Shown here piece by piece: positions 1 to 15,236 of a stretch of 15,236 nucleotides of DNA. A program made the position numbers and the translations under genes. Under the pieces are notes generated by a model. That model was given only the letters and a program-made list of their open reading frames with translations, was not told the DNA's origin and did not search any database. Position 1 is the stretch's first letter; every line of letters starts with the position of its first letter. The DNA comes from a virus. The stretch covers positions 1-15,236 of the IMG/VR virus record IMGVR_UViG_3300023486_000048, one strand, 5' to 3'.

Positions 1-51
1 TGTGGAATGCCTGTGGATTAACTACAACCCCCAACTGACGCTTTTTTGATT

Positions 52-576
52 ATGGCGCGTAAACCAACATCTTTAATCCCGCGGACGCACCGGGAATTAT
101 GCGAAATTGCTGAACGCTGGCTCATGGGCTCTGCCCGTTGCCGGGTGGCGATCGCGGAACCGAACTGCATCGTTACGGACGAGCAGCCCGACGCTATAGG
201 TTTCAAGGGATCGTATAGCATCCTCGTTGAGGCTAAAACCAGCCGGGCGGATTTTTTGGCAGACCTCAAAAAGCCGTTCCGCCTCCGTCCTCAAAAGGGT
301 ATGGGGTATTGCCGATACTACATCTGTGAGCCGGGGATCATCACAGAAGATGACCTGCCGGAACGGTGGGGATTACTGTATGTCCTCCCTGGCGGACGGG
401 TTCGGATAGTTCGGTACAGCAGACATTTCCGTGAGGCAAACTACGCCGCTGAAAGGAGCCTTTTGACCGCATGCCTGTACATCCAGAAGCCGCTAAAAAT
501 CAATACTGTTCAAGGCAGGAAAATACAGCTCTCACCTGCATTTGGCGCAGAAGCAAAAGAGAAGGAGGGGATATAG
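52..576 (+). CDS. PD-(D/E)xK-fold nuclease-like protein (MmcB-like), phage early gene
   Basis: ORF track 46..576 starts at TTG 46, with ATG at 52. The motif D(AIGF)...ILVEAKTSRADFLAD...K followed by YYICEPG matches the D...E-x-K nuclease core seen in MmcB-type proteins. Stop is TAG 574-576. Confidence 0.55.
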   Translation: MARKPTSLIPRTHRELCEIAERWLMGSARCRVAIAEPNCIVTDEQPDAIGFKGSYSILVEAKTSRADFLADLKKPFRLRPQKGMGYCRYYICEPGIITEDDLPERWGLLYVLPGGRVRIVRYSRHFREANYAAERSLLTACLYIQKPLKINTVQGRKIQLSPAFGAEAKEKEGI

Positions 577-581
577 TATAT

Positions 582-1337: not shown

Positions 1338-2058
1338 CGACCCCATTGACGCCCGGCACGCCCTCAAAGGTGCCGACATTGAAAGCCTCTTGGCATCCAT
1401 GACAGCGCTTGCCACGGATGACGGAAGAAGCATTGAAGAACTGGAAGCGGAAGCGCTCGCCGCCGAGAAACAGCGGGAGGAAGAACGCAAGGCAACCTAT
1501 GAACGCCTGGGCCTGGTTGACCGAGGCTTTCCTCGCCGGGCGATTGATTGCCTCGACGAAGTGACCGGAGAACCATGGAAGAAGGCCCTCCGTGATGCCT
1601 ATCGCCTTGTTTTGACTCCTGGGAGTATCATTGTACTAAACGGACGCTACGGCACCGGGAAAACGGTTTTAAGCACGTTTCTTGCCCGCGTCATGTACCG
1701 GCGCAAGAAGCGCGTCCTCTATACCAAGGCCTATGATTACACGATGGCCCTGCGGGAGACGTTCAACGGCGGCGGCTCTGAATCCTCTGTCATGGCCCGC
1801 TACAAGTCGCCTTATCTGCTGGTCCTGGACGAGTATCACGAGGTAAAGGACACGGACTTTACAGGCCCGGCGCTGGAACGGCTCATTGACTACCGGCACC
1901 AGAACGGCAAGCCGACCATCATCATTGCCAACTACAGCCCCGCCGCCCTGGAGGATCGCCTCGGCCCGGCCATTGTTTCACGCATCCATCTATGCGGCAC
2001 CATCATCACGTGTGATTGGCAATCGTACCGTGAGATCAACTACAACCTCCGGGAATAG
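1318..2058 (+). CDS. DnaC/IstB-like AAA+ helicase loader
   Basis: Walker A is GRYGTGKT and Walker B is LLVLDEYH. The position after the replisome organizer fits. The start is uncertain: ATG 1318 overlaps the upstream stop by 20 nt, and ATG 1270 is the ORF-track start. Confidence 0.8.
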   Translation: MNSGQTDDPIDARHALKGADIESLLASMTALATDDGRSIEELEAEALAAEKQREEERKATYERLGLVDRGFPRRAIDCLDEVTGEPWKKALRDAYRLVLTPGSIIVLNGRYGTGKTVLSTFLARVMYRRKKRVLYTKAYDYTMALRETFNGGGSESSVMARYKSPYLLVLDEYHEVKDTDFTGPALERLIDYRHQNGKPTIIIANYSPAALEDRLGPAIVSRIHLCGTIITCDWQSYREINYNLRE

Positions 2059-2094
2059 CCCTGGAATCTCGTATACCCCCTGGAATCTCGTATA
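2059..2094 (+). repeat. perfect 17-bp tandem direct repeat CCCTGGAATCTCGTATA x2 (2-nt spacer)
   Basis: Copies lie at 2059-2075 and 2078-2094, immediately after the stop of the helicase-loader gene at the high-GC/low-GC boundary. Confidence 0.9.
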
Positions 2095-2109
2095 GGGGGC
2101 GCGTTTTTA
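2076..2109 (+). terminator. weak hairpin plus T-run between convergent genes
   Basis: CCCCC (2076-2080) pairs with GGGGG (2095-2099) across a 14-nt loop, followed by CGCGTTTTT. The short stem and large loop give only moderate support. Confidence 0.35.
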
Positions 2110-2120
2110 TCTTGGAAAGA

Positions 2121-3425
2121 TCAAGATTGTTTCTTTGTAGACCGCCCCCTTGTATCAAACGCCGGGATATTTAATTTTCTCCTTGCTTTTCCGATAACTT
2201 GTATTGATTTGCCTGTTTTATTAGCGACTTCTTTATCAGTCATTGTGCCCAGCAGGGATTTAATGTATTCGTCCCCTTCTATTGTTTCTTGCAAGCTTTT
2301 TTCCTCACGTAATGCCGGAACATTCAATTTCTGTCTAATTCTTCTTACTGCCTCGTCATCAATATTAAATTTTTCGGCTATTACTCTATCATAAACTTTC
2401 CCAAGCATAGATAAGAGTTTTTTACGTTGGTCCGGTGAAAATCTTTCTAAAATGCTTTTACTGAAAGGCTTAATTTTGTTCTGTTCTCTAAATTTTTTAA
2501 TTACATATACGCTGTACCCTGTTTTTTTTGCAATTTTTAAATCTGATACTCTTCCCAATAAATTAAGAATTATATCCTTGTCCGCATCCTTAATGGGAGA
2601 GTATGGAGCTGGAGCAATTTTTAATTTTCTACGGTTCCGCGCTACAACATTAAGCGATATTCCAAGCCTTTCAGCAATTTCGCTATCAGGAACTTTCCCA
2701 AGCATGGATAGCATTTCTTCGCGTTTCTCTTCGGGGAATTTAGTATCAGATAATGATGGAATGCCCATCTTTTTTCTAATAAGCGCAATTCCTGCCTTGG
2801 AATAACCGAATTTTTTAGCAATTTCATCATCCGGGGTCTTTCCAAGCATGTTAATTAACTCTTCGGGATACTCTTTTTTCTTGTGTGGTTTATTTGGGTC
2901 TCGTGGCTGACGGGGTTTACGCGGCCCCCTATATGACTTAATCCCTAATTTCTTTCTAAGGTAGGCTACTCTGGAATTTGAGTATCCAAACTTCTTGGCA
3001 CACTCCGAGTCAGGAATTTTTCCGAGCACTGCAATAAGCTCTTCATCGTGTTGGATGCGGATTGCTTCAGGGCTGCAATACTTTTTGATACCTAATTTAT
3101 AGCGTTCAGTCTGGACCGTGACGCGCGCTATTCCGAGTAGCTCGGCGATTTCCAGATCAGGTTTTTTGCCCAACATGGACCGCATTTCTTCACGCTGTTC
3201 GTGAGAAAGAATGCGGTGAAACCTCTTTTCTCGGTATTTTTCATGCAATAACTCCATGAGCAATTGCATGTATTCAGGCGTGGGATGTGGTTTTTTAGTA
3301 TTTAGCCACTTCCAAACAGCATCTTCCGTCACCCGCATCATCTGCGCGGCCCTTTTTACAGCTTGGGTAGGATTTGGAAGATTGTTGGCAGTTTGAAGCC
3401 AGTCGATAAATTCTTGTGCGGTCAT
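2121..3425 (-). CDS. DNA-binding protein with an N-terminal HTH plus seven tandem HTH-like repeats (GcrA / sigma region-4-like modules)
   Basis: The ORF is 434 aa. The repeat core x-LG-K-x-PD-x-EIA-K-K-x-G-x-S-x(3)-V-x(3)-R-K-L-x-I recurs with LG anchors at aa 85, 134, 194, 242, 290, 341 and 392 (period 48-60 aa, DNA about 2160-3206). The protein is Lys/Arg rich. The gene is about 35-40% GC against about 60% in its neighbours. Confidence 0.85.
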   Translation of the reverse strand: MTAQEFIDWLQTANNLPNPTQAVKRAAQMMRVTEDAVWKWLNTKKPHPTPEYMQLLMELLHEKYREKRFHRILSHEQREEMRSMLGKKPDLEIAELLGIARVTVQTERYKLGIKKYCSPEAIRIQHDEELIAVLGKIPDSECAKKFGYSNSRVAYLRKKLGIKSYRGPRKPRQPRDPNKPHKKKEYPEELINMLGKTPDDEIAKKFGYSKAGIALIRKKMGIPSLSDTKFPEEKREEMLSMLGKVPDSEIAERLGISLNVVARNRRKLKIAPAPYSPIKDADKDIILNLLGRVSDLKIAKKTGYSVYVIKKFREQNKIKPFSKSILERFSPDQRKKLLSMLGKVYDRVIAEKFNIDDEAVRRIRQKLNVPALREEKSLQETIEGDEYIKSLLGTMTDKEVANKTGKSIQVIGKARRKLNIPAFDTRGRSTKKQS

Positions 3426-3437
3426 AGTGAGAAAGGA

Positions 3438-3456
3438 GGGGCGGCTTTGCCGCCCC
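3438..3456 (-). terminator. GC-rich hairpin between the two leftward genes (attenuator or processing/stability element)
   Basis: GGGGCGGC-TTT-GCCGCCCC forms an 8-bp perfect stem with a 3-nt loop. On the minus strand it is followed by TCCTTTCTC and then directly by the ATG of the HTH-array gene. Confidence 0.4.
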
Positions 3457-3466
3457 TGGGGGTTAT

Positions 3467-3790
3467 TTAGTGAGCTTCAACGCGGGAAGCGTCCTGCGTC
3501 CAGTTGAGGTTTTCTCCTTCAATTTCTTCGCCCGTCATTTGTTCAAAGACCATGAAGATTTCAACCTTGTTCCCTTCTGCATCATAGCCGGGAGCAGACC
3601 ATTCTTCCATATAGCTGCCGTCTTCGTATTTGTCCGCATAGGAGCCAGGGAAAACCCTGTTGGTGTATTCCATCTGGCGCGCTGCATAGTAGGTCTTGCC
3701 TTCAAACTTGTAGCTGCCAAATTCACGTTCAAGAGCGGTCAGGTTGATTTCTTCTCCGTCTTCCGTGGTGATGATTTTGTTATCGTTCAT
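3467..3790 (-). CDS. small highly acidic hypothetical protein
   Basis: The ORF is 107 aa with an ATG start, and it is the first gene of the leftward cassette. It has 24 D/E against 9 K/R residues by direct count. I recognise no family. Confidence 0.7.
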   Translation of the reverse strand: MNDNKIITTEDGEEINLTALEREFGSYKFEGKTYYAARQMEYTNRVFPGSYADKYEDGSYMEEWSAPGYDAEGNKVEIFMVFEQMTGEEIEGENLNWTQDASRVEAH

Positions 3791-3862
3791 TGTCTTGTTC
3801 TTTCTAGTTTTGTTATTTGGATTATGTCTTCGTTCGGTCCCTTACCTCCCGTCAACAAAATT

Positions 3863-3891
3863 AAGTTACTATAAAATTTATAGTAACGCAA
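3863..3891 (-). promoter_or_regulatory. leftward promoter candidate with an embedded 23-bp perfect palindrome (operator)
   Basis: The palindrome GTTACTATAAA-A-TTTATAGTAAC spans 3865-3887. On the minus strand TTGCGT (3891-3886) and TAACTT (3868-3863) are separated by 17 nt, so the palindrome fills the spacer and overlaps both hexamers. It lies about 75 bp upstream of ATG 3790. Confidence 0.45.
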
Positions 3892-4057
3892 GAGAAAAAA
3901 TGAAAAAAGGTGAAAAAAGTTGTCATTCCGTTTTTGCTTGCGGCCTGGCGCAGAATATGAGAGAAGTAATTTGTTCTTTCTAGGAACACGTCAGCCCTCC
4001 GGGGCTGTGGATTAAAACGATCACAAGATCAGCACGAGCGGAAACGCTCATTCCCTT

Positions 4058-4090
4058 AAAAAGGGCGGTTCTTCGGGGCTGCCCTTTTTT
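4058..4090 (+). terminator. rho-independent terminator, structurally plus-strand specific
   Basis: The structure is AAAAA, a 9-bp stem (4063-4071 paired with 4076-4084), a TTCG loop (4072-4075) and TTTTTT (4085-4090). Three G-T wobble pairs become A-C mismatches on the minus strand, leaving only a 4-bp stem there. Confidence 0.6.
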
Positions 4091-4607
4091 ATTCCTTCGG
4101 GACGGCAGGGGCGGCAAGTACCCGCCATCCGGCGCCGCTGCCATGTCCGCATTTGCGGAAGCGTTGTGCAGCACAAACCAGGAGCTTATAGACCTTTTTC
4201 CCCTTTTCTTCGCCGTACCGGTCTATCATGTAGAGTTTGAGATTCCGAGCCGTGACTTTCTCTCCATCCGGGGATTCCAGCAGCCATATCTTTGCATGGC
4301 AATTTGTCTCAAATTTCCCTGTTCTGGGGTGCTTCCTGGGGCCGGGAACTCCCCGATGCTTGCAAGCCTCCTGAAAGGCTTCTGACGTGATTTTCCGCCC
4401 CTTCTGGGCTGCATTCGCGCAAGGATAAGAGCAATGTTTCCGCCGAAAGAGTTTTTTAGCGCGGAATTCCTTTCCGCACACGGGGCAGGTGATAGTTTCC
4501 CAGGCCTCCGCATAGTGAGCCTGGAGGCAGGCCCGGGAACAGTACACGCTGTCGCGCTTGCCCGCGCGGGGAGGGACATCCTTGCCGCATATAGGACACT
4601 TTTTCAC
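4089..4607 (-). CDS. double zinc-ribbon (FCS/TRASH/YacG-like CPxCGK...CSxxC) protein with a NUMOD-like C-terminal region; possible late-gene regulator
   Basis: The ORF is 172 aa with a GTG start at 4607. Two modules are present: CPICGK...YCSRAC and CPVCGKEF...HCSYPC. The C-terminal WLLESPDGEKVTARNLKLYMIDRYGE resembles DNA-binding modules of homing-endonuclease-associated proteins. The gene is divergent from the late operon. Confidence 0.7.
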   Translation of the reverse strand: MKKCPICGKDVPPRAGKRDSVYCSRACLQAHYAEAWETITCPVCGKEFRAKKLFRRKHCSYPCANAAQKGRKITSEAFQEACKHRGVPGPRKHPRTGKFETNCHAKIWLLESPDGEKVTARNLKLYMIDRYGEEKGKKVYKLLVCAAQRFRKCGHGSGAGWRVLAAPAVPKE

Positions 4608-4704: not shown

Positions 4705-4712
4705 AGACCTGC

Positions 4713-5228
4713 AGGAAAAAGAAGCAATCACCTACCGCCAACAAGAAAATAGGACGGCCCAGCCTCTATACGGAGGCATTAGCCGACGAGATAGCCTCCC
4801 GTTTAGCCAACGGGGAAACGATGAAGTCCATTTGCTCGGACGATCACATGCCGGAGGTTTTAACTGTCTGGAGATGGAGGCACGAACGGGAAGAGTTTTG
4901 TAAACTCATTCAACGCGCGCGGGAAGCGCAGTCAGAAGCCATGCTCGACGAGTGTCAGTCTTTGTCAGATGCCGCTGCCCAGGTTGCCCTCGACCCCGAA
5001 TGCGGATCCGCCTCCGTCGCTGCCAAGAAGCTCGCCATTGAAACGCGGCTGAAAGTTGCCGCCCGTTTTGCCCCCGAGAAATTCGGCGACCGAGTCCGGC
5101 AGGATGTAGCGGGCGTTCCCGGCGCTCCATTGGAACGCAAAATCACCCTGGACCCCGAGCAGCTTGCCCAGCTCCGGGAAGACGAGAAAACCGCGCTGGA
5201 AACCATTGCCGGCAAACTCCACCCTTAA
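4713..5228 (+). CDS. terS: terminase small subunit (HTH N-terminus); start non-canonical or unresolved
   Basis: The in-frame translation from 4752 reads GRPSLYTEALADEIASRLANGETMKSICSDDHMPEVLTVWRW...RAREAQSEAMLDE...ETRLKVAARFAPEKFGDRV. This is the pattern of a widespread small-terminase family whose HTH sits at the extreme N-terminus. The first canonical start (ATG 4821, ORF track) would delete that HTH. The in-frame stop is TAG 4704-4706, and there is no ATG/GTG/TTG between 4707 and 4820. In-frame AGG is at 4713 and ATA at 4749. Confidence 0.8.
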   Translation, partial: RKKKQSPTANKKIGRPSLYTEALADEIASRLANGETMKSICSDDHMPEVLTVWRWRHEREEFCKLIQRAREAQSEAMLDECQSLSDAAAQVALDPECGSASVAAKKLAIETRLKVAARFAPEKFGDRVRQDVAGVPGAPLERKITLDPEQLAQLREDEKTALETIAGKLHP

Positions 5229-5234
5229 TCGAGC

Positions 5235-6608
5235 AGGAACCATCTCCCCGTCAGCTTCTTCCTCCGTCACATTCTCGGACTCGATCCTTATCCCTGGCAA
5301 ATCGAGGCCATCAAGGCATTGCTTCTTGGAAAGGTGAGGCTGGGAGGTCGAAGCGTGGCCATGGTTGCTCCGAACGGATCGGGAAAGACGAGCCTATCCA
5401 TTGCGCCCGCAATCCTGTGTTTCCTTACCTATTTTCCTCGGGGTCAGGTGCCAGTCACGTCATCATCATGGATGCAGGTAGAAAAACAGCTCTTTCCCGC
5501 GCTTCGCCGCTATATGGATAACCCTTTCTTTGACGGCTGGACATTCAACAAAACCGAAATCCGCACGCCGGAAGGAGGATTTGCCGTGGGATTCTCAACC
5601 GACAACGCGGGACGCGCAGAAGGGTGGCATCCGAAAATCTCGCCCGACGTGGATCCCGTCTTTTACGTCCTGGACGAAGCCAAGACCATTCCCGACTCCA
5701 TCTTCACCGCTGTTTCCCGCTGCACGCTCTTCAACGCGTTCATCACCTCGTCGCCGGGTGCCGATTCCGGAACCTTTTACGACTGCTTCCACAAAAATTC
5801 ATCCCTCTACTACAAAATCCGCGTTAAATACGAGGATTGCCCGCACATCGAAATCAACGATCCAGGCAAGGCCGAACGCCTGAAAAAAGAATACGGCGAA
5901 CAGTCCTCCTTCTACCGCTCGGCCATCCTCGGCGAATTCACGGACCTTGACGGGCAATCCGTCATTTCCCGCCGCGCCATCATGGAGCTGCTCAACAACC
6001 CGCCTCCCTTTTTGGACACCGGGGAGACCTGCGGCGGCTTTGACTTCGCCGCCGGGGGTGATGAGAATGTCTTCGCGGCCGGACAGGGCAACCGTTTTTT
6101 CATCGCCGACCACTGGGCCGACCCAGACACTGTAGGAGCGCGCGGACGTTTCCGCCGAAAGGCCGCCGAACTCGGCATCTCTGCCGACCGCATCTTTGCC
6201 GACGGCGACGGACTGGGGCTTCCCATCATTGACGACTTCCGGGCTGAGGGTTTCCCCGTGCACTCCTACCGGGGAGGCTTCCCGGCAGATGACACACAAG
6301 CCTTTGTCAACCTCCGCGCCCAAGCATGGCGGGCTCTCGCCCGCGCCATCGAAGAAAAAGAACTCATCCTCGACATTGACGAGGATACGATTGAGCAGCT
6401 GGTTGCTCCACGACTCCAAACCGACGCAATAGGCCGCGTCCGCATTGAAAGCAAAGAAGATATGGCAAAGCGGGGCGTTCGTTCCCCAGACCGGGCCGAC
6501 GCCCTTGTGATGGCCTGGCACGCGCGCCGGAACAGCGGACTGGCGCGGACGCTGGGAGCCTGGTACGCCCGTCCCGTGTCATCAAAACGCGCTTACGGGA
6601 GATATTAG
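5235..6608 (+). CDS. terL: terminase large subunit; start non-canonical or unresolved
   Basis: Walker A is APNGSGKTS and Walker B is FYVLDEAK, with a C-terminal nuclease-sized domain. The ORF-track start is TTG 5319, but the in-frame sequence FLRHILGLDPYPWQIEAIKAL, typical of a TerL N-terminus, lies upstream. No canonical start occurs between TAA 5226-5228 and 5319. In-frame AGG is at 5235 and ATT at 5271. Confidence 0.85.
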   Translation, partial: RNHLPVSFFLRHILGLDPYPWQIEAIKALLLGKVRLGGRSVAMVAPNGSGKTSLSIAPAILCFLTYFPRGQVPVTSSSWMQVEKQLFPALRRYMDNPFFDGWTFNKTEIRTPEGGFAVGFSTDNAGRAEGWHPKISPDVDPVFYVLDEAKTIPDSIFTAVSRCTLFNAFITSSPGADSGTFYDCFHKNSSLYYKIRVKYEDCPHIEINDPGKAERLKKEYGEQSSFYRSAILGEFTDLDGQSVISRRAIMELLNNPPPFLDTGETCGGFDFAAGGDENVFAAGQGNRFFIADHWADPDTVGARGRFRRKAAELGISADRIFADGDGLGLPIIDDFRAEGFPVHSYRGGFPADDTQAFVNLRAQAWRALARAIEEKELILDIDEDTIEQLVAPRLQTDAIGRVRIESKEDMAKRGVRSPDRADALVMAWHARRNSGLARTLGAWYARPVSSKRAYGRY

Positions 6609-6610
6609 GG

Positions 6611-6639
6611 TTGACAACATATCAAGATATCAATATATG
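6611..6639 (+). promoter_or_regulatory. sigma70-like promoter candidate in an AT-rich island between terL and portal
   Basis: TTGACA (6611-6616), a 17-nt spacer, then TATATG (6634-6639). The spacer contains the direct repeat ATATCAA x2 and a GATATC palindrome. Confidence 0.35.
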
Positions 6640-6661
6640 ACGATATGTAAGCAATCGCAGG

Positions 6662-8110
6662 GTGGTGAAACGGTATCACGCGGGGTTCCTGTCCCCGAAT
6701 CGAAGGTCCAACTCCTTCCCCTGCAACCACCTTTTCTTTAGCCTCAGGTTTAACGCCGTCAAAAATATCCTCAACGCCCCGAAGCTGGTAGCCCAACAGG
6801 AGACCAGAATCAAGGAGCTTGAAACGGACCTGGCCCGGCGAGCGTTGACGGAACAGAGCCGGAAGCCTAACCAGCCTCAATGGTACGAATATTGGGACCC
6901 GTTACAGGGCGCCGACCTGCAAACCCTGATTGACGCCCGGAACGAAGCGCGGCGTGGAGCCTTTGCCCGCCAAATGCTCATTTGGGACGAGGTCATCTAC
7001 TCGGACGGCTTGATGGGCATGCTCTATTCCCGGCTCATTGAAAGCGTCTCCATGCAGGGATGGAAGATTGACGCCGCGGACGACAGCCCGGAAGCCCAGC
7101 GTCAGCAGAACGCGCTGGAAGAATTCTATCACTCCGTCACCGGACTTCAACAGGCCTTTGGGCAGTTGGCCTCCGCTATGTTTTACGGGTACGCCCACCT
7201 CCAATACATCGAAGATTCCTGGGGCCGCCGCTTTGAATTCATCCCGCAGCGATACTGGGTGCGGCCCGGAGAGCTGAACGAATGGCAGTTTAATCCCCAG
7301 TGCTACATCGGGGTCGACACGGGCGAGAGCGTAGAGGAAGAAACGCTCGTGGTCATGGAGCACCGGAACCCCATTCTTTTTCCGGCAACCCGCGCCTCTT
7401 TTGAGCGGAATCACGCCAAAGTTACGTGGGACAACCATATGGACCGCTACGGGAGCGCCCCGGTCATCATCACGGCGCCCAAGGACGCGAGCGCCGCCGT
7501 CATGGACGCGCTGGAACGGGCCTGTGAGGAACTCAAATCGGGAGCCTCCATTGTGCTTCCTCCCGGCTGCACCGCCGAACCGTTGAAAGCCTCCAACATC
7601 AACGAAAACTATTTCCTATCCCGAATCAACATGTCCGACAAGGACCAGGTGCGGTTTGTAATGGCCGGCACTCTGACCGTCCTGAATGAATCAGGATCCG
7701 GCACGCTGGCCGGGGGAGCGCACACGGACAGCTGGAATTCGGTCGTCTCCGCGGTCTGTTCCAAGGTCGCCGAAGCTTTTAACGCCGCCATCAGCCCGCT
7801 TGTCCTGGGAGACGGCGAACCGCTGGCCCGCCTCCACATCACTTTTGACACCGTCCAGACCCCGCTGCAGAAAGCCGAGGAAATCGCCGCGCTTGCCGAC
7901 GGAGGCGTCCGCCCCGAGAAGACCGAGATTGAAGAAAAGATCGGCATGTCGATCGAGGACACGCAGGACCCCGTTCCGGTGACGGCGGCGGCCAACAGGG
8001 AACCGGAAAAAGCACTCATTCCGCCCGATGCTTATGAACAGCTTCAGCAAATGATTTACGCCGGACTCATGAAAGGATTTACCGATGATCAGCACGAAAC
8101 AAATCAATGA
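6662..8110 (+). CDS. portal protein (DUF935 / Mu gp29-like)
   Basis: The ORF is 482 aa and sits after terL. The segment RGAFARQMLIWDEVIYSDGLMGMLYSRLIESVSMQGWKI...DDSPEAQ fits the Mu gp29-type portal pattern. GTG 6662 is immediately preceded by in-frame AGG 6659-6661. Confidence 0.75.
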   Translation: MVKRYHAGFLSPNRRSNSFPCNHLFFSLRFNAVKNILNAPKLVAQQETRIKELETDLARRALTEQSRKPNQPQWYEYWDPLQGADLQTLIDARNEARRGAFARQMLIWDEVIYSDGLMGMLYSRLIESVSMQGWKIDAADDSPEAQRQQNALEEFYHSVTGLQQAFGQLASAMFYGYAHLQYIEDSWGRRFEFIPQRYWVRPGELNEWQFNPQCYIGVDTGESVEEETLVVMEHRNPILFPATRASFERNHAKVTWDNHMDRYGSAPVIITAPKDASAAVMDALERACEELKSGASIVLPPGCTAEPLKASNINENYFLSRINMSDKDQVRFVMAGTLTVLNESGSGTLAGGAHTDSWNSVVSAVCSKVAEAFNAAISPLVLGDGEPLARLHITFDTVQTPLQKAEEIAALADGGVRPEKTEIEEKIGMSIEDTQDPVPVTAAANREPEKALIPPDAYEQLQQMIYAGLMKGFTDDQHETNQ

Positions 8111-9197
8111 CCTGTCCCGACCCGCCAACGGCTGGTTCCACGTTGAGAAAAGCGGAGACCATGACGTTGACTACGGCGAGGGTCCCGCCGTGTTGCGCAT
8201 CGACGAGCAGGCGATCCGGGACATGGTGGACGACTTCAACGCCCGCACCTTTGACGGCCCGGGCATGCTCATCGACGGCGACCACCTGAGCCACGACCTT
8301 TCCCGCGATACTCGGGCCCTCGGATGGCTCAAGAGGCTGGACACCTACCGCGACCCTTCCGGCACGCTGGAACTCTACGGGTTCATCGAATGGACGCCGC
8401 GCGGCCTGAAGATGCTGCAGGACAAGGAATACACGCAATCATCCACCGAATATGGCGAAGGCATGACTTTGACGGACGGCGTCTACCGCCCGTCGCGTCT
8501 GACCGGCTTCGCTCTGACCAACCGGCCGCGCATCAAGGGAAAGCGGCCTCTGGTCAACCGACAGACTTCCCCCGCCTCCGACGAGGCCGGGGGCGACCCC
8601 AAAAGCCCCGAAGAGGGGGAAACAACCCAGAAAACCAATATGGAAAACGACGATAGAGAATATCCGTCCAAGGAGATGGACAAGGCCCAGCGGGCCCTGT
8701 TCGACTCCCTGCTTGACAAGCTGGATGTCGAATTTGACGGCACCGACGACATGAGCAGGGCGATCCTCGGACGCCTTGATGAACTGCTCTCGCTGGAAAA
8801 GCGTGAGAAAGACCACGTGAACGCCGAAGTGGACGACGCCGTCAGCACGTACGAAAACGCGCTGGACGAGGAAGAACGCGAGGAATTCACGGAAGAACGC
8901 CGGGAAGAGCTGAAAAACTCTCTCCGGGAAAGCCCCGCCGCGCTGAACGCTTTTATCCGTGCGCTCAACCGCCAGACTCCGCCCAAAAAACCGGATCAGG
9001 AGGAAAAGAAGGAACTGCCGAAAAGGACGCCTCTGAACCGCCGCGCGACGCTGAATCCCCCTGACCCATTCCGCAAGAAGGAATCCATTGACGGATTCAA
9101 CAACCGCGTCAACGAACTGATCAAGGACGGCATGAAGCGCTATGACGCCTACCAGAAAGCGACCGAAGAAGGCTTCATCGTCTCCGCCAACCGATAA
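8085..9197 (+). CDS. Mu gpI-like prohead protease with a C-terminal scaffold-like charged region
   Basis: The N-terminal GWFHV...IDGDHLSHD...ALGWLKRL...GFIEWTPRGLKMLQDKEY...LTGFALTNRPRI matches the Mu-like prophage I protein pattern. The C-terminal about 190 aa are E/K/D rich and look coiled-coil. ATG 8085 overlaps the portal stop. Confidence 0.75.
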   Translation: MISTKQINDLSRPANGWFHVEKSGDHDVDYGEGPAVLRIDEQAIRDMVDDFNARTFDGPGMLIDGDHLSHDLSRDTRALGWLKRLDTYRDPSGTLELYGFIEWTPRGLKMLQDKEYTQSSTEYGEGMTLTDGVYRPSRLTGFALTNRPRIKGKRPLVNRQTSPASDEAGGDPKSPEEGETTQKTNMENDDREYPSKEMDKAQRALFDSLLDKLDVEFDGTDDMSRAILGRLDELLSLEKREKDHVNAEVDDAVSTYENALDEEEREEFTEERREELKNSLRESPAALNAFIRALNRQTPPKKPDQEEKKELPKRTPLNRRATLNPPDPFRKKESIDGFNNRVNELIKDGMKRYDAYQKATEEGFIVSANR

Positions 9198-9215
9198 CTT
9201 AACCCATATCAACCA

Positions 9216-9647
9216 ATGCCATCACTCAACGTAACCCAGAAAAACGCCATCGTCTATTTCAACGCCCCTGAAGGCGTTGACCTGTGCGGACAGGAAGGAA
9301 CCGTCGTGGCGCTGACCGCCAATCCTGACATCCCCGAATTTGTCGGAACTCCGTTGTCCGCCATCCCCACGCAGACGCAGCTGCTCGGCGTCGTCCTGCA
9401 GGGACAGCCCAACAAGGGAACCTGCGTCGCCGCGCTCGTCGGAATGTATGCCGGCCTGATCAAGGCGGCTCTATCCGACACGCCCGGAACCATCAACGCC
9501 GGAACGCCCGTCACCATCACGGCCAACGGGACATGGAAGGCCGCCGCCAGCGGCGACACCGTCTATGCCCGCGTTATTCATGCCCAGTGGGAACAGGGCC
9601 TTGTGGAAATCGGCTTCGTTCCGTCCTACCAGGTCGCCGCAGCCTAA
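9216..9647 (+). CDS. hypothetical head protein in the decoration-protein position (gpD/DUF2190-like placement)
   Basis: The ORF is 143 aa with an ATG start. It is Gly/Ala/Val/Thr rich and lies immediately upstream of the major capsid gene. The assignment rests mainly on position. Confidence 0.6.
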   Translation: MPSLNVTQKNAIVYFNAPEGVDLCGQEGTVVALTANPDIPEFVGTPLSAIPTQTQLLGVVLQGQPNKGTCVAALVGMYAGLIKAALSDTPGTINAGTPVTITANGTWKAAASGDTVYARVIHAQWEQGLVEIGFVPSYQVAAA

Positions 9648-9681
9648 CTATTAACCCCAACCAACAGAAAGACCAAGAACA

Positions 9682-10608
9682 AGGGCTACTCCATTTTGCT
9701 CCGCCGTTCAGTTCACCGATGTCCTGACCTCCTATTCCGCGGGGTCCGGGAACACCGAAGAGAACTCCATCATCAGCCGCATCGCTCCGATCGTCCCGGT
9801 CTATGACCTGAATTTCCAGTACAAGGTCTGGGACACGGAATCGGCCTTCACCGTCCAGCCCATCCAGGTGGGACCGGGCGAACCTCCCCGCCAGACCGTC
9901 CTGCGCGGAAGAAACGAAACCGACACCCTTCAGGGCTACGGCTTGACGCTGCCCATCCCTGACGCCTTGCTGGGCGTCAACCGGGAAAAGGCGCAGGCCA
10001 TCACCCTGGCGGAATACAAACTCATCGAATCCCAGTTTGTGACGTCGTACGAATACGAACGCGCCAAGCTTCTGATGAGCCAGCTTCCGGCCGCTTCCGG
10101 GATGGGTGACTGGGCCAACCAGCAGAAAAACCCGTTGGCGGATCTGGACCAGGCGATCCTGTCCATCAACGCCGCAACCGGACACATGCCGAACACGATT
10201 GTCTTCGGCATCAACGCATGGCAGCTGCTTCGCTCCAACACGCTCGCGCGTCAGGTGGTTTCCTTCAACAGCGTCGGCCTGTTCAACGAAGACCTTCTTC
10301 GCATGGCTCTGATCCGGCCCATCCGGGATATTTACATCGCCTCCATGCCGTACCGCGACGCTTCCGGCGACGCGAAAACCATCATGGAAAACGAAGTCTA
10401 TGTCCTGTACAAGGAAGACTCCCCGACGCAGTTCGACGCCTCCGCCGTCAAGACCTTCGGTCTTTCCGGCAAGCTTCGCCGAGAAGTCATCACTGAATAC
10501 AAGCCGACGCCGGCCTTGACGCTCGTCACAAACCGCGTCTACTCGCTGACCAAGTTGACGAACCCCAGCGCCATCGTCCGCATCGACGCGACGGCCACCG
10601 GCGATTAA
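9682..10608 (+). CDS. major capsid protein (lambda gpE-like); start non-canonical or unresolved
   Basis: The segments IISRIAPIVPVYDLNFQYKVWD and NPLADLDQAILSINAATGHMPNTIVFGINAWQLLRSN parallel lambda gpE segments (YVSPIVSGEVI and DPTDDIEAYALNASGVVNIIVFDPKGWALFRS). The first segment lies upstream of the ORF-track start GTG 9868. The frame is open from 9655 with no canonical start. Starting at in-frame AGG 9682 gives 308 aa. Confidence 0.75.
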   Translation, partial: RATPFCSAVQFTDVLTSYSAGSGNTEENSIISRIAPIVPVYDLNFQYKVWDTESAFTVQPIQVGPGEPPRQTVLRGRNETDTLQGYGLTLPIPDALLGVNREKAQAITLAEYKLIESQFVTSYEYERAKLLMSQLPAASGMGDWANQQKNPLADLDQAILSINAATGHMPNTIVFGINAWQLLRSNTLARQVVSFNSVGLFNEDLLRMALIRPIRDIYIASMPYRDASGDAKTIMENEVYVLYKEDSPTQFDASAVKTFGLSGKLRREVITEYKPTPALTLVTNRVYSLTKLTNPSAIVRIDATATGD

Positions 10609-10627
10609 CCCCAACCCCGCCTCCATC

Positions 10628-11104
10628 ATGTCCGCCTTTCCTGCCTGGTCCACGATTTCCACCGACGAAGCCGATCGGCTGCTCGGTCTCAACACCGCCG
10701 AACGCGATGCCCTGGTAACAGCCGGGGAACAGCGCAGCCTGGACTACCGGGATGTCATGATGGAGGCGGTCAACGATGTCTGCATGACCATCCGCGGGGC
10801 GCTGGCCAACAACCTCGCCCTGCGGCAATCGCTCCAGAACAGCGGCATGTACGACATTCCGCAAAGCATGCGGTCCCTGGCATGGCCGCTGATCATCCGG
10901 CAGCTCTACCTGCGCTACCAGCTCAACCTGACCGAGACGCGCCAGAAGGCCGCCGAATCGGCGGACGCGATGCTGGCGCTCTACGCCAAAGGGGACATGC
11001 TGCCGGAAAGCGTGGACGGCTCCGCGCCCGCGGATCCCGCCTACATGATGCCGCGCTACACGCGCCGCCCCTGGTTCAACCCCATGCGAAGCACCTACCG
11101 ATGA
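10628..11104 (+). CDS. putative head-tail connector / head completion protein
   Basis: The ORF is 158 aa with an ATG start and lies directly after the capsid gene. It has a weak resemblance to the DUF1320/gp36-like class. The call is mostly positional. Confidence 0.55.
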   Translation: MSAFPAWSTISTDEADRLLGLNTAERDALVTAGEQRSLDYRDVMMEAVNDVCMTIRGALANNLALRQSLQNSGMYDIPQSMRSLAWPLIIRQLYLRYQLNLTETRQKAAESADAMLALYAKGDMLPESVDGSAPADPAYMMPRYTRRPWFNPMRSTYR

Positions 11105-12237
11105 TGACCGCCGCCCAGATGGAGATGATCGCCAACGACTACGCCGAACGCGCCTTTTTCGTGTCCGGCGTGGAGCCCGGCGTTATCCTGTCCGACTTTG
11201 AGGAAAAGGCGGGGAAGGTCGCCTCCGGCGCCCTGAGCTATGAAGAGGCGCAGCAGTCCATCCGCGAAACCCTGCGCCAGCAGGGCTACCGACCGCCGGC
11301 AACGGGGCAGGGCGGCATTCAGGATTTGTCATCCTGGCTCCGCATCCAGGTCGTCATGGAAACCAATGCGGCCATGGCGCACGGTTACCGGAACTGGTAT
11401 AACTGGATGCAGGACGAAGACACGGCCGCCTTCAAATTTTACCGCTCCCAGGGGCGGGAAGACCCGCGCTATTGGGCCGAACGCTGGAACCGTGCCCGGG
11501 CCGGGCTGGAAGAAGAAGCCACGGAAGCGGTATCATCCGGCTTCATCCGCGGGGAAATCGTCGGCTATGCGCTGGCGGCCTCCGATATCTGGATCCGCCT
11601 TTCGCGCTTTGGCACGCCTTACCCGCCCTTTGACTACCTGTCCGGCATGAACATTGCCCCCGTGGGCGCCGAAGAAGCCCGCGCGGCCGGGCTGGCCGTG
11701 TCGCGCGTCCGTCCCGCTCCCCCCAGCTTCAACGCAACCTTGGAAAGCAACGCCAAAGGCGTGACGGAATCCAACAGGAACAAGATCCGCCGCATCCTGA
11801 AAGACGCCGTGCGCGTCAAGACCGGGAACGACGGCAATACCACCTTTGCCTACACGGACCCGAACGGCACGCGCCCTTACACGGACGCGGAACTGGCGGA
11901 CGTCCTGTCCGGGGATTTCCCGGAAGAGATCCCCTTGCGCCAGGCCCAGGCCTTCAGCCTGGCGGCAGCCGGGGGAGCCGTGGCCGGAACGCTGGCGGCC
12001 CTCTACCTGGACCGTCTGCTGGACCGTCTGGCTTCCGAGCCGGAAGGTGATTGGTACGCCCGGCCCGCAGACGTGGCCGCCGCGTCCTCCCGCCAGTATA
12101 TCCCCGTTTCCCCAAAGGAAGAGGGGGAATTCACCTATCCCATTACCTCCGGGCACGTCAGGAAAGTGGAAGACGTCGCCGGAGCCCTCAATGTGGAACT
12201 GTCAACCCCTTACGTTTTACCCGTCAAATGGCTGTAA
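11101..12237 (+). CDS. minor head protein (Mu F / SPP1 gp7-like) with an extended C-terminus
   Basis: ATG 11101 overlaps the upstream stop (ATGA), so the ORF-track start at 10882 is an out-of-context extension. AFFVSGVEPGVILSDFEEK...SWLRIQVVMETNAAMAHGYRNW fits the head-morphogenesis F-family core. Confidence 0.65.
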   Translation: MMTAAQMEMIANDYAERAFFVSGVEPGVILSDFEEKAGKVASGALSYEEAQQSIRETLRQQGYRPPATGQGGIQDLSSWLRIQVVMETNAAMAHGYRNWYNWMQDEDTAAFKFYRSQGREDPRYWAERWNRARAGLEEEATEAVSSGFIRGEIVGYALAASDIWIRLSRFGTPYPPFDYLSGMNIAPVGAEEARAAGLAVSRVRPAPPSFNATLESNAKGVTESNRNKIRRILKDAVRVKTGNDGNTTFAYTDPNGTRPYTDAELADVLSGDFPEEIPLRQAQAFSLAAAGGAVAGTLAALYLDRLLDRLASEPEGDWYARPADVAAASSRQYIPVSPKEEGEFTYPITSGHVRKVEDVAGALNVELSTPYVLPVKWL

Positions 12238-12893
12238 CCGTCCACATCGACCAATCCGCGATTAACCGCGCGTTTGCCGACATGGCGCCGTCCGCCGCCC
12301 TGCACAAGACCGCCATCCGCAAGGCGGGCGTTGCCCTCAGTCTGATGATTCAGCAAACCTTGCGCCAGCAGGGCAAGGACTACTACGACGCCGCGGCGGA
12401 CGCCACCAGCATGGAAGAAACCGCCGAAGGCGTCAGCGTCTCCATTGCCTGGCGCGGCATCGGCCTGCACTGGATAGGCACGCAGGGCTACCTGGGCGGC
12501 CCGCTGCGGCCCACCGGACGCACTTCGGAAGTCACCGGCAAGCCGATTCAGAACCTCGCCATCCCCACCATCAACGCGCCACGAGGGCATGGAGGGACCC
12601 GAAGCATTTACAGCGCAGGCTTCCGCAAAGAGGACTTGCAATTCATCCCCTCCAAAAATGGAGGACGGAATGGAAATGTAACCGGTGTCCTGATTCTCAA
12701 GACAGCCCAGTCCTCCACCGGGAAGAAAGCGGCCCGCAAGCTTTTCAGCAAAGGAACGAAAACAGGAGACGTCCTCTATATCCTGTGCCGGGAAGTAACG
12801 ATTGCTCCTACTCCTGGCATCCTGCCGACGATGGACCAAATGGCGCAGCGCGCCGCGGAAACATACCTCACCCAAATCGGAAACGAATCATGA
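12228..12893 (+). CDS. hypothetical virion morphogenesis / neck protein
   Basis: ATG 12228 overlaps the upstream stop by 10 nt (ORF-track start 12051 is an extension). The product is 221 aa and is translationally coupled within the structural operon. Confidence 0.6.
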   Translation: MAVTVHIDQSAINRAFADMAPSAALHKTAIRKAGVALSLMIQQTLRQQGKDYYDAAADATSMEETAEGVSVSIAWRGIGLHWIGTQGYLGGPLRPTGRTSEVTGKPIQNLAIPTINAPRGHGGTRSIYSAGFRKEDLQFIPSKNGGRNGNVTGVLILKTAQSSTGKKAARKLFSKGTKTGDVLYILCREVTIAPTPGILPTMDQMAQRAAETYLTQIGNES

Positions 12894-13420
12894 TCCCCTC
12901 CATTGACCAGACCATGAGCTGCCGCATCATTGAGCGGCTCAAAAGCAGCAAGGAATTGAGCTGCCACATCTTTGACGCGCCCTTTGATCCGGAGTATGCC
13001 GCCAATGACATCATCATGTCTGCAATGGGGAATAACGGCGTGGTGCTGGTGTGTCCCGGGGATGCGGATGAATACCAGGACGGACACGGGCAGACGGCGG
13101 AACCTACCATGTGGAGGCAGTATTTCATTATTGTAGCCATCTATCACAACGCTGCCCTGTTCCCGGAGGAATGCCTGACGCCGGCCTACTATTTGCGCGC
13201 CGTGGGCGACGTGATTGAGCATGCCCTGTGGAACTGGAATCCACTTCCGTTTCCCGCGCCCGCCATGATGAAGCCCAAGATCAAGGGGCGCTTTGCCTCT
13301 TCCGGGATTATCGACGGAGAGAAGAGGCAAATGAACGTCTTGACCGTGGACTACCGCGTCCCGATCAATATCAACATACGAACCAAAACGGAATTCCATG
13401 AGCAGAACGCCAAAAAATAA
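12890..13420 (+). CDS. hypothetical neck / tail-completion protein
   Basis: ATG 12890 forms an ATGA overlap with the upstream stop (ORF-track start 12785 is an extension). The product is 176 aa. Confidence 0.6.
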   Translation: MIPSIDQTMSCRIIERLKSSKELSCHIFDAPFDPEYAANDIIMSAMGNNGVVLVCPGDADEYQDGHGQTAEPTMWRQYFIIVAIYHNAALFPEECLTPAYYLRAVGDVIEHALWNWNPLPFPAPAMMKPKIKGRFASSGIIDGEKRQMNVLTVDYRVPININIRTKTEFHEQNAKK

Positions 13421-13595
13421 ACAGCAAAAAGACCAGGGGGATCACCAGGACAAGGTGACCGTCCGCGTCGTCAGCACGAAAACAGAACTGGATGGAGGGC
13501 TGGTCATCAGCCTCTTCATGAAAACCGACACCCCGGAACTTCCCGCGACCATCGCGGAAGCTCTGGCAACCCTCAACCTTGTTGACATCAAATGA
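13398..13595 (+). CDS. small hypothetical structural-operon protein (65 aa)
   Basis: The ATG start overlaps the previous gene by 23 nt, and the stop overlaps the next ATG (ATGA at 13592). Confidence 0.5.
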   Translation: MSRTPKNKQQKDQGDHQDKVTVRVVSTKTELDGGLVISLFMKTDTPELPATIAEALATLNLVDIK

Positions 13596-13789
13596 GCAAA
13601 GCAGCTGCAGCCAACACCGAACCGGAGAAGAAGACGGAGCAGGCCGCCGTCATCAACACGAACATCCTCATTCTGTCCAAAGAAGTGAGGATAGGGCGCT
13701 CAACGTTCTTGAAAGGAGCGCATATTCGTGTTACGAAAGAACTCGCCGATAAGCTGGAAGCCGACGGCAAGGCAACAATCATCTACTAA
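13592..13789 (+). CDS. small hypothetical structural-operon protein (65 aa)
   Basis: ATG start with ATGA coupling to the upstream ORF. It lies immediately before the putative tube gene. Confidence 0.55.
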   Translation: MSKAAAANTEPEKKTEQAAVINTNILILSKEVRIGRSTFLKGAHIRVTKELADKLEADGKATIIY

Positions 13790-13803
13790 CCGTTTCAAGC
13801 ACC

Positions 13804-14454
13804 AGGGCAACTACATACGATCCCACATTCACGAACCGCAACGTCACGCCGCAGATTACCGGCGTTCTGGCTATTTTCCTCCCCGACGGCATCAAGGTGA
13901 CCGAAGACGAGGGAGCTTCTTACGTCACCGGGCCGGACCAGTTTCCGACGCCTCCGACGTCTCCGCCAACGGATCCGACCGCCGGGCCTGAACAGCCCTG
14001 GGTGAGCTTCGGGCTGCTGGGAGCGTTCCAGTCCGTCGCCACCCAGGTCGAAGGGGAAGTGACGCGCTTTTACGGCGGTGCGCTGGGATATCGCCAGCAG
14101 CGCAAGAACACCACGACCGGCAAGCGGATGACCTTCACCACGCCGGACATGTCCCCCGAATGGTTCCAGCTTTCTTTCGCCTTGGGAGCGCCTCCCGCCA
14201 ACGGCGAGGAATCGACCACCGTCGGACATGGCGGCGACAATAAGATTGAGGGGTATCTTCACTTCTGGTATCAGAACGACGTGGGTACTATCTATCTGGT
14301 CGGAACGGCGCATGGCGCCTTGCGCCTCCTGCAGGATCCCGAACACACCACGGCGATTGCTTCACCCCAGTTCGAGTTCGAAATGGATTATCGCGGCAAG
14401 TACCAGTTCACGCCCTCCAATGTGCAGGACGTGACGCCGGCGCCGGGTTCCTGA
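13804..14454 (+). CDS. putative major tail (tube) protein; start non-canonical or unresolved
   Basis: The ORF track gives GTG 13897..14454. The in-frame upstream sequence ATTYDPTFTNRNVTPQITGVLAIFLPDGIK looks like genuine beta-rich protein. No canonical start lies between the previous stop (13787-13789) and 13897. In-frame AGG is at 13804. A strong terminator follows. The function is inferred from position and composition. Confidence 0.55.
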   Translation, partial: RATTYDPTFTNRNVTPQITGVLAIFLPDGIKVTEDEGASYVTGPDQFPTPPTSPPTDPTAGPEQPWVSFGLLGAFQSVATQVEGEVTRFYGGALGYRQQRKNTTTGKRMTFTTPDMSPEWFQLSFALGAPPANGEESTTVGHGGDNKIEGYLHFWYQNDVGTIYLVGTAHGALRLLQDPEHTTAIASPQFEFEMDYRGKYQFTPSNVQDVTPAPGS

Positions 14455-14466
14455 CGCGTTTCACCA

Positions 14467-14499
14467 GGGGGCGCGCTGCGCCCCCGCATCCTCTTTTTT
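14467..14499 (+). terminator. rho-independent terminator / attenuator after the tube gene
   Basis: GGGGGCGC-GCT-GCGCCCCC forms an 8-bp stem (14467-14485), followed by GCATCCTC and TTTTTT (14494-14499). Confidence 0.65.
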
Positions 14500-14502
14500 C
14501 CC

Positions 14503-15236
14503 AGGCAGCAGGCAGGCAAATACGATATCCGGACCGTCACGGGGCTGAACCAGTCGCTGGTCGTCCGTGTGGTAGATTTTCAGGGGGATCCCGTCGACAT
14601 GAGCGGCGTCACCCTCCGCGGCGCTGTCCGTCTCAAGACAGGCGTCGCCGAGTTCGGCTTTTCCCGCGACGATGAGGGTAACGGCGTGCTTTCCTGGGCT
14701 TCGGTGCCTGCGGGCAGGTGGTCCTACGACGTCTTCATGGACGACGGAAACGAGGAAAGACCGCTGCTCTACGGATGCTTTGTTTCTGCGGGCCGTGTAA
14801 CGCCTGACTTGCCGGACGAACAGCAGGCCGTGGCGGGCGCGGTCGTCGTGCAGCTGCCGGAAGGAAGCGGCTGCGTGCAGGTGGTGCTTGATAATGCGTC
14901 AAGCGCCGCCTGGTACGCGGAGCAGGCCAAGAAGTACGCCGAGAATTTCAATCTTTCGGTGGACCGGGTCACTACCGGCGAGCCTGGCACTCCTGCCGCA
15001 GCGGAAGCCGTGAAAGGCTCGGAAGCGGGCTCTTATCTGTTGTCGTTTACCATCCCCAAAGGAGACGCCGGTCCCGAAGGCCCACCAGGCCCGCAGGGGG
15101 AACCGGGCGAAACCGGCCCCGAAGGCCCTCAGGGTCCCAGGGGCGACGCAGGACCTCAAGGTCCTCAGGGAGCGACCGGAGAACAGGGACCAAGAGGCGA
15201 CATTGGAGAAACCGGACCGCAGGGTCCTGCCGGCCC
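14503..15236 (+). CDS. tail fiber / baseplate protein with a BppU-like N-terminal Ig domain and collagen-like repeats (3' partial)
   Basis: The frame is open from 14455 to the window end; the ORF track omits it, presumably because it has no stop in the window. [41 protein letters not shown]...[11 protein letters not shown] resembles BppU-N-type Ig domains. [15 protein letters not shown] is followed by G-X-Y repeats. In-frame AGG is at 14503; the first canonical starts are GTG 14569 and ATG 14599, both inside the domain. Confidence 0.7.
15061..15236 (+). repeat. collagen-like G-X-Y coding repeat (19+ triplets, continues beyond the window)
   Basis: The translation is [58 protein letters not shown], with glycine at every third position and no interruption. 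Confidence 0.9.

Follow-up and report, generated by a model that had tools for sequence, protein, structure and literature searches.

Conserved AGG start codons and a candidate initiator-type tRNA with anticodon CCU in the late operon of a temperate Akkermansia phage

The window analysed here, the whole 15,236-nucleotide (nt) stretch of IMG/VR virus record IMGVR_UViG_3300023486_000048, covers the junction of early and late genes and the operon for virion assembly in a temperate phage of Akkermansia muciniphila. Six late genes of this operon carry an in-frame AGG where a start codon would be expected, and a tRNA gene with the complementary anticodon, CCU, lies among them. All of the evidence is computational and comes from sequence comparison, profile search and fold prediction. 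All of these late features are on the plus strand. The small terminase gene (TerS; 4713-5228) comes first in the operon, has AGG at 4713-4715 and matches PF20901 over residues 18-129. The large terminase gene (TerL; 5235-6608, AGG 5235-5237, with a phrog_2 match) begins 6 nt after the terS stop, and 47 nt 3' of its own stop codon (6606-6608) lies the tRNA gene (6656-6729), identified by ARAGORN and Rfam and ending in an encoded CCA. Behind the tRNA follows the portal gene (6746-8110, AGG 6746-6748), which matches PF06074 (Portal_Mu). The remaining three are the genes for the major capsid protein (9682-10608, AGG 9682-9684), which follows a gap of 34 nt; a virion protein (13804-14454, AGG 13804-13806), which follows a gap of 14 nt; and a collagen-like tail fibre (14503-15236, running off the window end, AGG 14503-14505, with matches to PF01391 and tail-fibre PHROGs), which follows a gap of 48 nt containing a hairpin. 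AGG genes head the blocks of the operon. Family matches bear out the names that a first-pass annotation had given to TerS, TerL, portal, capsid and fibre. Its name 'tube' for the product of 13804-14454 could not be verified, with no Pfam, PHROG or PDB sequence match, and serves here as a label only.

A listing of the stop-to-stop open reading frames (ORFs) of the window confirms that five late ORFs lack a canonical start at the N-terminus, where a single in-frame AGG is found instead. In the stretches that separate the upstream stop from the first canonical start, this sole AGG stands at 4713 in TerS (4707-4820), at 5235 in TerL (5229-5318), at 9682 in the capsid gene (9655-9867), at 13804 in 'tube' (13753-13896) and at 14503 in the fibre gene (14455-14568). 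The first ATG, GTG or TTG lies 22 to 62 codons 3' of the AGG in these ORFs (those ending at 5228, 6608, 10608 and 14454 and the one open at the window end). The N-terminal peptides that had been read from these AGGs stand, except for TerL, which is (X)NHLPVSFFLRHILGLDPYPWQ (NHLPVSFF, not NPSPVSFF). For the portal, an AGG at 6659 had been noted directly before its GTG (6662). This AGG does precede GTG GTG, but it represents bases 4-6 of the tRNA acceptor stem, and the conserved portal N-terminus (FNAVKNILNAPKLV) begins instead at the in-frame AGG 6746, which is preceded by C and lies 17 nt 3' of the tRNA CCA end.

Several observations indicate that coding begins at these AGG codons. The first canonical ATG of TerS (4821) is codon 37, and phrog_1482 already covers residues 6-134; likewise, the first canonical GTG of the capsid gene is codon 63, and phrog_1005 already covers residues 12-262. 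Because the family profiles reach well upstream of them, these canonical starts cannot be the real ones. When the stretch from the AGG to the first canonical start is compared with two relatives, no indels appear, and the substitutions are distributed 20:15:85 over codon positions 1:2:3. This third-position bias without gaps, together with the profile coverage of these residues, argues at the sequence level for AGG as the first codon. Within late genes, in-frame AGG is rare (3.8 per 1000 internal codons; 13 of 212 arginine codons), yet it aligns with the start codons of a divergent relative in portal, capsid, 'tube' and fibre and is two codons away in TerL, which is far beyond chance.

The remaining late genes all start with ATG. 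They comprise a protease/scaffold gene (8085-9197), which overlaps the end of the portal gene, a late gene at 9216-9647, and six genes between 10628 and 13789 with starts at 10628, 11101, 12228, 12890, 13398 and 13592. Six of these eight overlap the end of the preceding gene, as would be expected under translational coupling, and the other two, 9216 and 10628, follow gaps of 18 and 19 nt. The late ORFs are otherwise intact and the early genes have canonical starts, as had been reported. The genes at 8085 and 9216, with ATG in every related locus, serve as internal controls, indicating that start codons in the operon are not generally degraded.

About 90 related loci of Akkermansia phages and prophages keep the AGG starts, although the DNA upstream of them is scrambled. 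These loci form two collections, one of 41 tRNA-bearing loci from IMG/VR, GenBank and genomes (the window included) and one of 52 metagenome loci; they diverge by up to about 18% in the portal protein and come from different studies, assemblers and sample types. The counts that follow take in only loci that include the given gene. For TerS, AGG is found wherever the start is resolved in the first collection (one locus unresolved) and in 42 of 44 metagenome loci (two unresolved). TerL begins with AGG in 40 of 41 loci, the exception being locus L024, and in 45/45 metagenome loci. The capsid start is AGG in the first collection except in L024, and in 48/48 metagenome loci. The portal, 'tube' and fibre starts are AGG in all loci of the first collection and in 52/52, 35/35 and 32/32 of the second. 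The genes at 8085, 9216, 10628, 11101, 12228, 12890 and 13592 have ATG throughout both collections, and gene 13398, whose aligned start is not resolved in many loci, has a conserved ATG where it can be aligned.

One relative is Akkermansia phage DTMo-2021a (GenBank CP084202.1), which was deposited as a separate complete sequence, without any annotation, and is 84.6% identical to the window in DNA. All six AGGs and the tRNA are conserved in it, with local identity of 80-92%. In TerS, AGG followed by AAA AAG AAA is kept behind 18 distinct, unrelated, stop-containing upstream contexts, and the portal AGG is kept behind 19 distinct contexts; many of these contexts have stops within 2-10 codons, and conservation begins at the AGG. 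Among the distinct contexts of the TerS, TerL, portal, 'tube' and fibre genes, 73 of 75 have C at position -1 (4712, 5234, 6745, 13803 and 14502 in the window), and the capsid gene always has A; the earlier remark that C precedes five of the six AGGs first listed was correct.

Two further observations concern the annotation of AGG-clade proteins. Database calls of the capsid homologues (P0002-P0046) have 246 or 278 amino acids instead of 308 and lack the first 62 or about 30 residues; they include NCBI and UniRef entries named 'major capsid protein [Akkermansia muciniphila]'. The full-length relatives P0001, P0006 and P0048 begin with methionine where the AGG stands or at most one codon away. 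A seventh candidate AGG lies outside the window, at the start of a 721-residue late protein (L001:28905-31073 and L111-L130). Its C-AGG is conserved in 20 loci in a TerL-like context (AGC AGG AAC CAC), and variation from the AGG to a TTG nine codons 3' is mostly at third positions; the TTG is conserved too, which leaves this start ambiguous.

The tRNA is the only one that ARAGORN finds in the window, and it is labelled tRNA-Arg. The first-pass annotation had proposed a genome-wide search for an initiator-like tRNA with a CCU anticodon, and such a tRNA, which it had overlooked, is present at 6656-6729. It reads CGCAGGG-UG-GUGA-AACGGUA-UCAC-G-CGGGG-UUCCUGU-CCCCG-AAUC-GAAGG-UCCAACU-CCUUC-CCCUGCA-ACCA, with the anticodon (CCT in the DNA, loop TTCCTGT) at 6688-6690. 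Rfam gives a tRNA score of 52.7 bits and flags C1xA72 as the sole non-standard pair, and the minimum-free-energy fold is a cloverleaf in which bases 1 and 72 are open. Pattern and protein-anchored scans yielded 21 distinct variants of the tRNA. Twenty of the 21 cloverleaf pairs are standard in every variant (n=21), G30:C40 is invariant, and compensatory double changes occur at eight pairs, including 4:69 and 7:66 of the acceptor stem, while slid-register controls give pairing of 37-66% only. Position 1:72 is CxA in 21/21 variants and is never paired. Since all other pairs are kept, eight of them by compensation, this constancy shows a mismatch under selection rather than decay. The anticodon is CCT in every one of the about 90 loci, and a scan with the acceptor/D-arm pattern in which the anticodon was left free found no relative with another anticodon (36/36 copies CCT).

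Comparison was made with E. coli tRNAfMet and argW, using reference sequences that were verified against 5,426 E. coli genomes. The acceptor stem agrees with tRNAfMet at six of seven positions, including CxA, G2:C71, C3:G70 and A73. In E. coli, G2:C71, C3:G70 and A73 are determinants for the formyltransferase; C3:G70 is invariant among the 21 variants, and G2:C71 is G:U in one. The three G:C pairs G29-G31:C39-C41 are as in tRNAfMet in the window and in 13 of the 21 variants, the others having A29:U41 or U31:G39. The phage tRNA thus shares with bacterial tRNAfMet the 1:72 mismatch, the neighbouring acceptor pairs, A73, the G:C pairs at 29-31:39-41 and the encoded CCA, but it differs in having anticodon CCU instead of CAU, U11:A24, G37, a D loop of 7 nt, a variable loop of 4 nt and, in most variants, C55. 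As the anticodon is CCU in every copy, it is not a tRNAfMet, which is marked by a CAU anticodon and methionine identity, but has an initiator-type body with another anticodon. With argW, the E. coli tRNA-Arg(CCU), it shares the anticodon and, more closely than with tRNAfMet, the sequence of the short D loop (AACGGUA). However, its acceptor stem is unlike that of argW, which has G1:C72 and the opposite anticodon-stem polarity, and the phage tRNA has CxA where elongators are paired. Position 20 reads U and position 37 reads G (A in two variants), although numbering is uncertain with so short a D loop. The argW type has A20 and A37, and A20 is an identity element for ArgRS in E. coli, a rule that may not be Akkermansia's.

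The tRNA elbow is variable among the 21 variants. The nominal G19, the second G of the GG in the D loop (6669-6675), is C, A or U in three variants, and position 55 of the T loop (6707-6713) is C in most variants and U in few; so relaxed an elbow is unusual. A scan of IMG/VR for canonical tRNAfMet anticodon arms with CCU, or with an anticodon lacking A35, returned only chance matches and elongators with paired 1:72, but it relied on exact patterns and was a weak test.

The first-pass annotation had held that ATG at the orthologous codons would expose an artefact or engineering. The codon is AGG in the tRNA-bearing clade, with ATG at two starts of L024, and ATG or TTG in locus L074. The latter, a Logan assembly with 60% portal and 81% capsid identity and a G+C content of 43% (57% in the window), has no tRNA within 15.5 kb. 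At the exact aligned codon it has TTG in the portal gene and ATG in the capsid, 'tube' and fibre genes, and in TerL an ATG lies two codons upstream of the aligned AGG. For instance, 'tube' begins ATG GCA ACT ACT in L074 and AGG GCA ACT ACA in the window. L024, the most divergent carrier of the tRNA, is intermediate: it has ATG at the exact capsid codon, an ATG one codon downstream of the aligned AGG in TerL, and AGG at the other four starts. By these alignments, AGG is exchanged for ATG or TTG in relatives. The complementary codon is therefore found at true gene starts and co-varies with the tRNA, as in an orthogonal pair.

Taken together, these data make it likely, as far as sequence can tell, that this is a natural system of orthogonal initiation, in which a phage initiator-type tRNA(CCU) and AGG starts in six late genes gate late translation. 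This agrees with the explanation listed first in the earlier annotation, AGG initiation through a dedicated initiator tRNA, which both the tRNA at 6656-6729 and the comparative evidence support. It also seems likely that the tRNA is a non-CAU initiator, that the starts of key virion and packaging genes have been turned into AGG, and that the genes heading each block would be translatable only with the phage tRNA.

In the proposed mechanism, the phage tRNA would be charged by host enzymes. ArgRS is the likeliest of these, given that C35 and U36 belong to the identity elements for arginine and that MetRS requires CAU. No aminoacyl-tRNA synthetase, formyltransferase or initiation-factor gene is recognisable by Pfam in the complete relative, and host enzymes must therefore service the tRNA. 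The host formyltransferase would be expected to accept it, given the acceptor-stem determinants; IF2 and IF3 would then place it in the P site of the 30S subunit, where CCU would pair perfectly with AGG. Since host tRNAfMet would read AGG very poorly, efficient synthesis from the AGG genes and from the coupled ATG genes behind them would require the phage tRNA. If the coupled genes depend on translation of the leading gene, the tRNA would control most of the operon. AGG had been read as methionine; that position as the start holds, but by analogy with engineered initiators, in which the amino acid follows the new anticodon, the first residue is probably (formyl-)arginine. With i-tRNA(AAC), for instance, proteins begin with formyl-valine (bioRxiv 10.1101/2021.05.25.445580). 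Of 12 engineered pairs, E. coli metY-CCU with an AGG start was the most highly expressed in each of the six strains tested, and in Nissle 1917 its expression exceeded that from AUG (bioRxiv 10.64898/2026.04.16.719103).

The tRNA may also be controlled separately. A predicted promoter-like element (TTGACA, 17 nt, TATATG; 6611-6639, plus strand) lies between terL and the tRNA, with two ATATCAA repeats in its spacer (6619-6625 and 6627-6633). TTGACA is kept in 18 of 19 distinct upstream variants and is TTTACA in L024. A consensus promoter scanner did not flag 6611-6639, as its -10 hexamer ends in G. Judging from its sequence, the terL-tRNA spacer may provide the tRNA with a regulated promoter or an operator. 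This spacer (6611-6655) is more conserved than other intergenic DNA and contains further GATAT motifs, and ATATCAA occurs also just 5' of the ATG genes 9216 and 13398. With a conserved promoter-like element of its own, the tRNA could act as a translational key, gating virion production non-linearly in a phage whose life also includes a prophage stage. The likely benefit would be tight, non-linear gating of virion and packaging proteins in a temperate phage; alternatively, the system might allow escape from host defences aimed at the host initiator tRNA, or protect the late genes against hijacking.

Several points weigh against this interpretation. The D stem has U11:A24 in 21/21 variants, which is elongator-like; canonical initiators have A11:U24. 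In eight of 21 variants, just two of the pairs at 29-31:39-41 are G:C, and the IMG/VR scan finds GGG:CCC anticodon stems in phage elongator tRNAs as well, making that feature weak taken alone. The formyltransferase of E. coli handles basic aminoacyl groups poorly. The covariation of codon and tRNA comes from one tRNA-less lineage (L074-L076), the intermediate L024 and a 1.5-kb fragment (P0048), and hence from few phylogenetic events; further tRNA-less outgroups were found neither in species genomes (one locus, tRNA-bearing) nor in IMG/VR or metagenomes, which returned the same clade only. Position 37 of an initiator tRNA can pair with mRNA position -1 (PMC10018350), and a fourth base pair between G37 and the conserved C is a conjecture that the variants do not support, as the two with A37 (four loci) keep C at -1, without covariation.

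The last such point concerns two of the 52 metagenome loci, L151 and L174, which keep AGG starts and retain only the last 14 nt of the tRNA (TTCCCCTGCAACCA). The remnant stands directly 5' of the portal AGG (L151:3370-3540, L174:7830-8000), and before it lies unrelated AT-rich DNA encoding Toprim, ERCC4 and GYF-domain proteins. The junctions of the two loci are homologous, though diverged, and the arrangement is therefore real and recurrent. It resembles an att-type junction in a tRNA gene, and a mobile element may have integrated into the initiator-type tRNA gene; an intact copy of the tRNA may then lie at the far end of the inserted element, beyond the DNA covered.

Among other explanations, the one that fares best is that the tRNA is an ordinary elongator tRNA-Arg(CCU) serving a rare codon, and that AGG or nearby starts are used by near-cognate host tRNAfMet as a low-expression device. 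The ARAGORN label, the argW-like D arm with U11:A24 and the rarity of AGG as an internal codon are all consistent with this, and the native initiator tRNA does initiate promiscuously to some extent, AGG included (bioRxiv 10.64898/2026.04.16.719103). Nevertheless, CxA is kept in 21/21 variants, with compensatory changes in acceptor pairs close to it, and the use of elongators by EF-Tu requires that 1:72 be paired. An elongator would also leave two things unexplained, the placing of AGG exactly at the start of six genes and the ATG found at these sites in the tRNA-less relative. Near-cognate initiation at a level of about 0.1% would hardly suit the major capsid protein, of which hundreds of copies are needed, and with this protein among the AGG genes the low-expression device that had been suggested is at best an incomplete account. 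We therefore consider the elongator explanation unlikely.

A second possibility is that no start codon is recognised at all, ribosomes reinitiating after the upstream gene by coupling or 70S scanning, with AGG at these sites being incidental. The TerL and 'tube' AGGs, 6 and 14 nt after the preceding stop, are suitably placed for this. TerS is first in the operon, however, the portal gene lies behind a tRNA gene and the fibre gene behind a hairpin and a 48-nt gap; moreover, an incidental codon would drift, whereas AGG is invariant, and the coupled genes of the operon use ATG. Such reinitiation is very unlikely. It is scarcely credible that the loci are decaying, defective prophages that have lost their start codons. 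Many copies are indeed integrated in Akkermansia chromosomes (L077 and long metagenome contigs), but all ORFs are intact and show third-position bias, and the chance of reaching the same codon at six starts by random single-base changes of ATG, given that six changed, is roughly (1/9)^6. A separate complete phage genome has been deposited, and the phage is present on one metagenome contig whose name indicates 758x coverage. Finally, the AGGs might stem from errors of sequencing or assembly, such as a systematic change of T to G at methylated CATG (five of the six sites read CAGG and would be CATG if G were T), or from laboratory engineering of start-codon knockouts; a T-to-G artefact and engineering had both been raised in the first-pass annotation. 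These explanations can be dismissed: the window contains CATG 72 times, the AGGs are shared by about 90 diverged loci that were assembled independently, and the matching anticodon is encoded next to them.

The rest of the window and its host context can be described briefly. Its early part encodes a replication initiator (471-1337), a DnaC-like loader (1270-2058), a protein with several helix-turn-helix domains on the minus strand (2121-3425) and an HNH/zinc-ribbon protein (4089-4607), all with canonical start codons. The region 5' of terS (1-4607) is mosaic, and DTMo-2021a has different genes there (L001:9116-10811); the complete relative also encodes an integrase and a RecT/nuclease pair. 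The host is identified as A. muciniphila from the GenBank host field, a prophage in a 283-kb contig of an A. muciniphila metagenome-assembled genome and the source names of the capsid homologues. Ahead of the fibre AGG, a GC-rich hairpin (GGGGGCG-CGCTG-CGCCCCC, 14467-14485) is followed by a pyrimidine-rich, T-rich tract that extends to 14502, and the leaders of the portal and 'tube' AGGs are likewise rich in pyrimidines and lack a Shine-Dalgarno sequence. Three copies of the 8-base palindrome CCTGCAGG are present in the window (4708-4715, 9395-9402 and 14328-14335) against 0.32 expected, a count reached in one of 200 shuffles; one of the copies overlaps the TerS AGG.

The closest parallels to the proposed system are engineered. 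E. coli initiators such as the amber initiator (CUA), i-tRNA(AAC) and i-tRNA(CCU) with AGG also combine an initiator body with a non-CAU anticodon and a complementary start codon (bioRxiv 10.64898/2026.04.16.719103; 10.1101/2021.05.25.445580; 10.1101/524249). In these laboratory mutants of metY, expression of start-recoded genes depends on the special tRNA, as it would in the phage; the phage system is natural and located in a late operon, and its tRNA body, with the short D loop, U11:A24 and G37, is no simple point mutant of tRNAfMet. A second parallel is the recoding of stop codons in gut phages through phage suppressor tRNAs (bioRxiv 10.1101/2021.08.26.457843; PMC10879173). There too a phage tRNA alters how a codon is read, one that is concentrated in the late or structural genes, and late translation is proposed to depend on a phage product. 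Suppressor tRNAs, however, reassign a stop codon in elongation, while AGG would acquire an additional role solely at initiation and, inside genes, presumably continues to encode arginine. Under the standard code the late genes contain no in-frame stops, and the sole tRNA in the window, with its CCU anticodon, is no suppressor. Natural non-AUG starts (GUG, UUG, AUU and CUG) likewise place a gene start at a codon other than AUG, but they are read by tRNAfMet through wobble or mismatch, whereas AGG mismatches CAU at the middle base and has a dedicated tRNA that matches it. The literature yielded no natural non-CAU initiator tRNA and no natural AGG start system, only engineered initiators and stop-codon recoding, although an earlier description elsewhere is possible.

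In textbook initiation, as far as we know, there is one initiator tRNA, with anticodon CAU, which reads non-AUG starts too. If the interpretation given here is true, this would be, as far as we can tell, the first natural case of a sense codon made into a start codon by a dedicated initiator tRNA, and a naturally evolved AGG/CCU pair, identical to the one reported to perform best among 12 engineered pairs in E. coli. In practical terms, gene callers shorten or miss genes that start with AGG. As both a phage isolate (DTMo-2021a) and its cultured host (A. muciniphila NBRC 114322) exist, the system is open to direct test. A second, viral initiator with matching late start codons would represent a new layer of flexibility in the genetic code, and it would mean a new kind of gene regulation in phages, a translational key that is independent of transcription.

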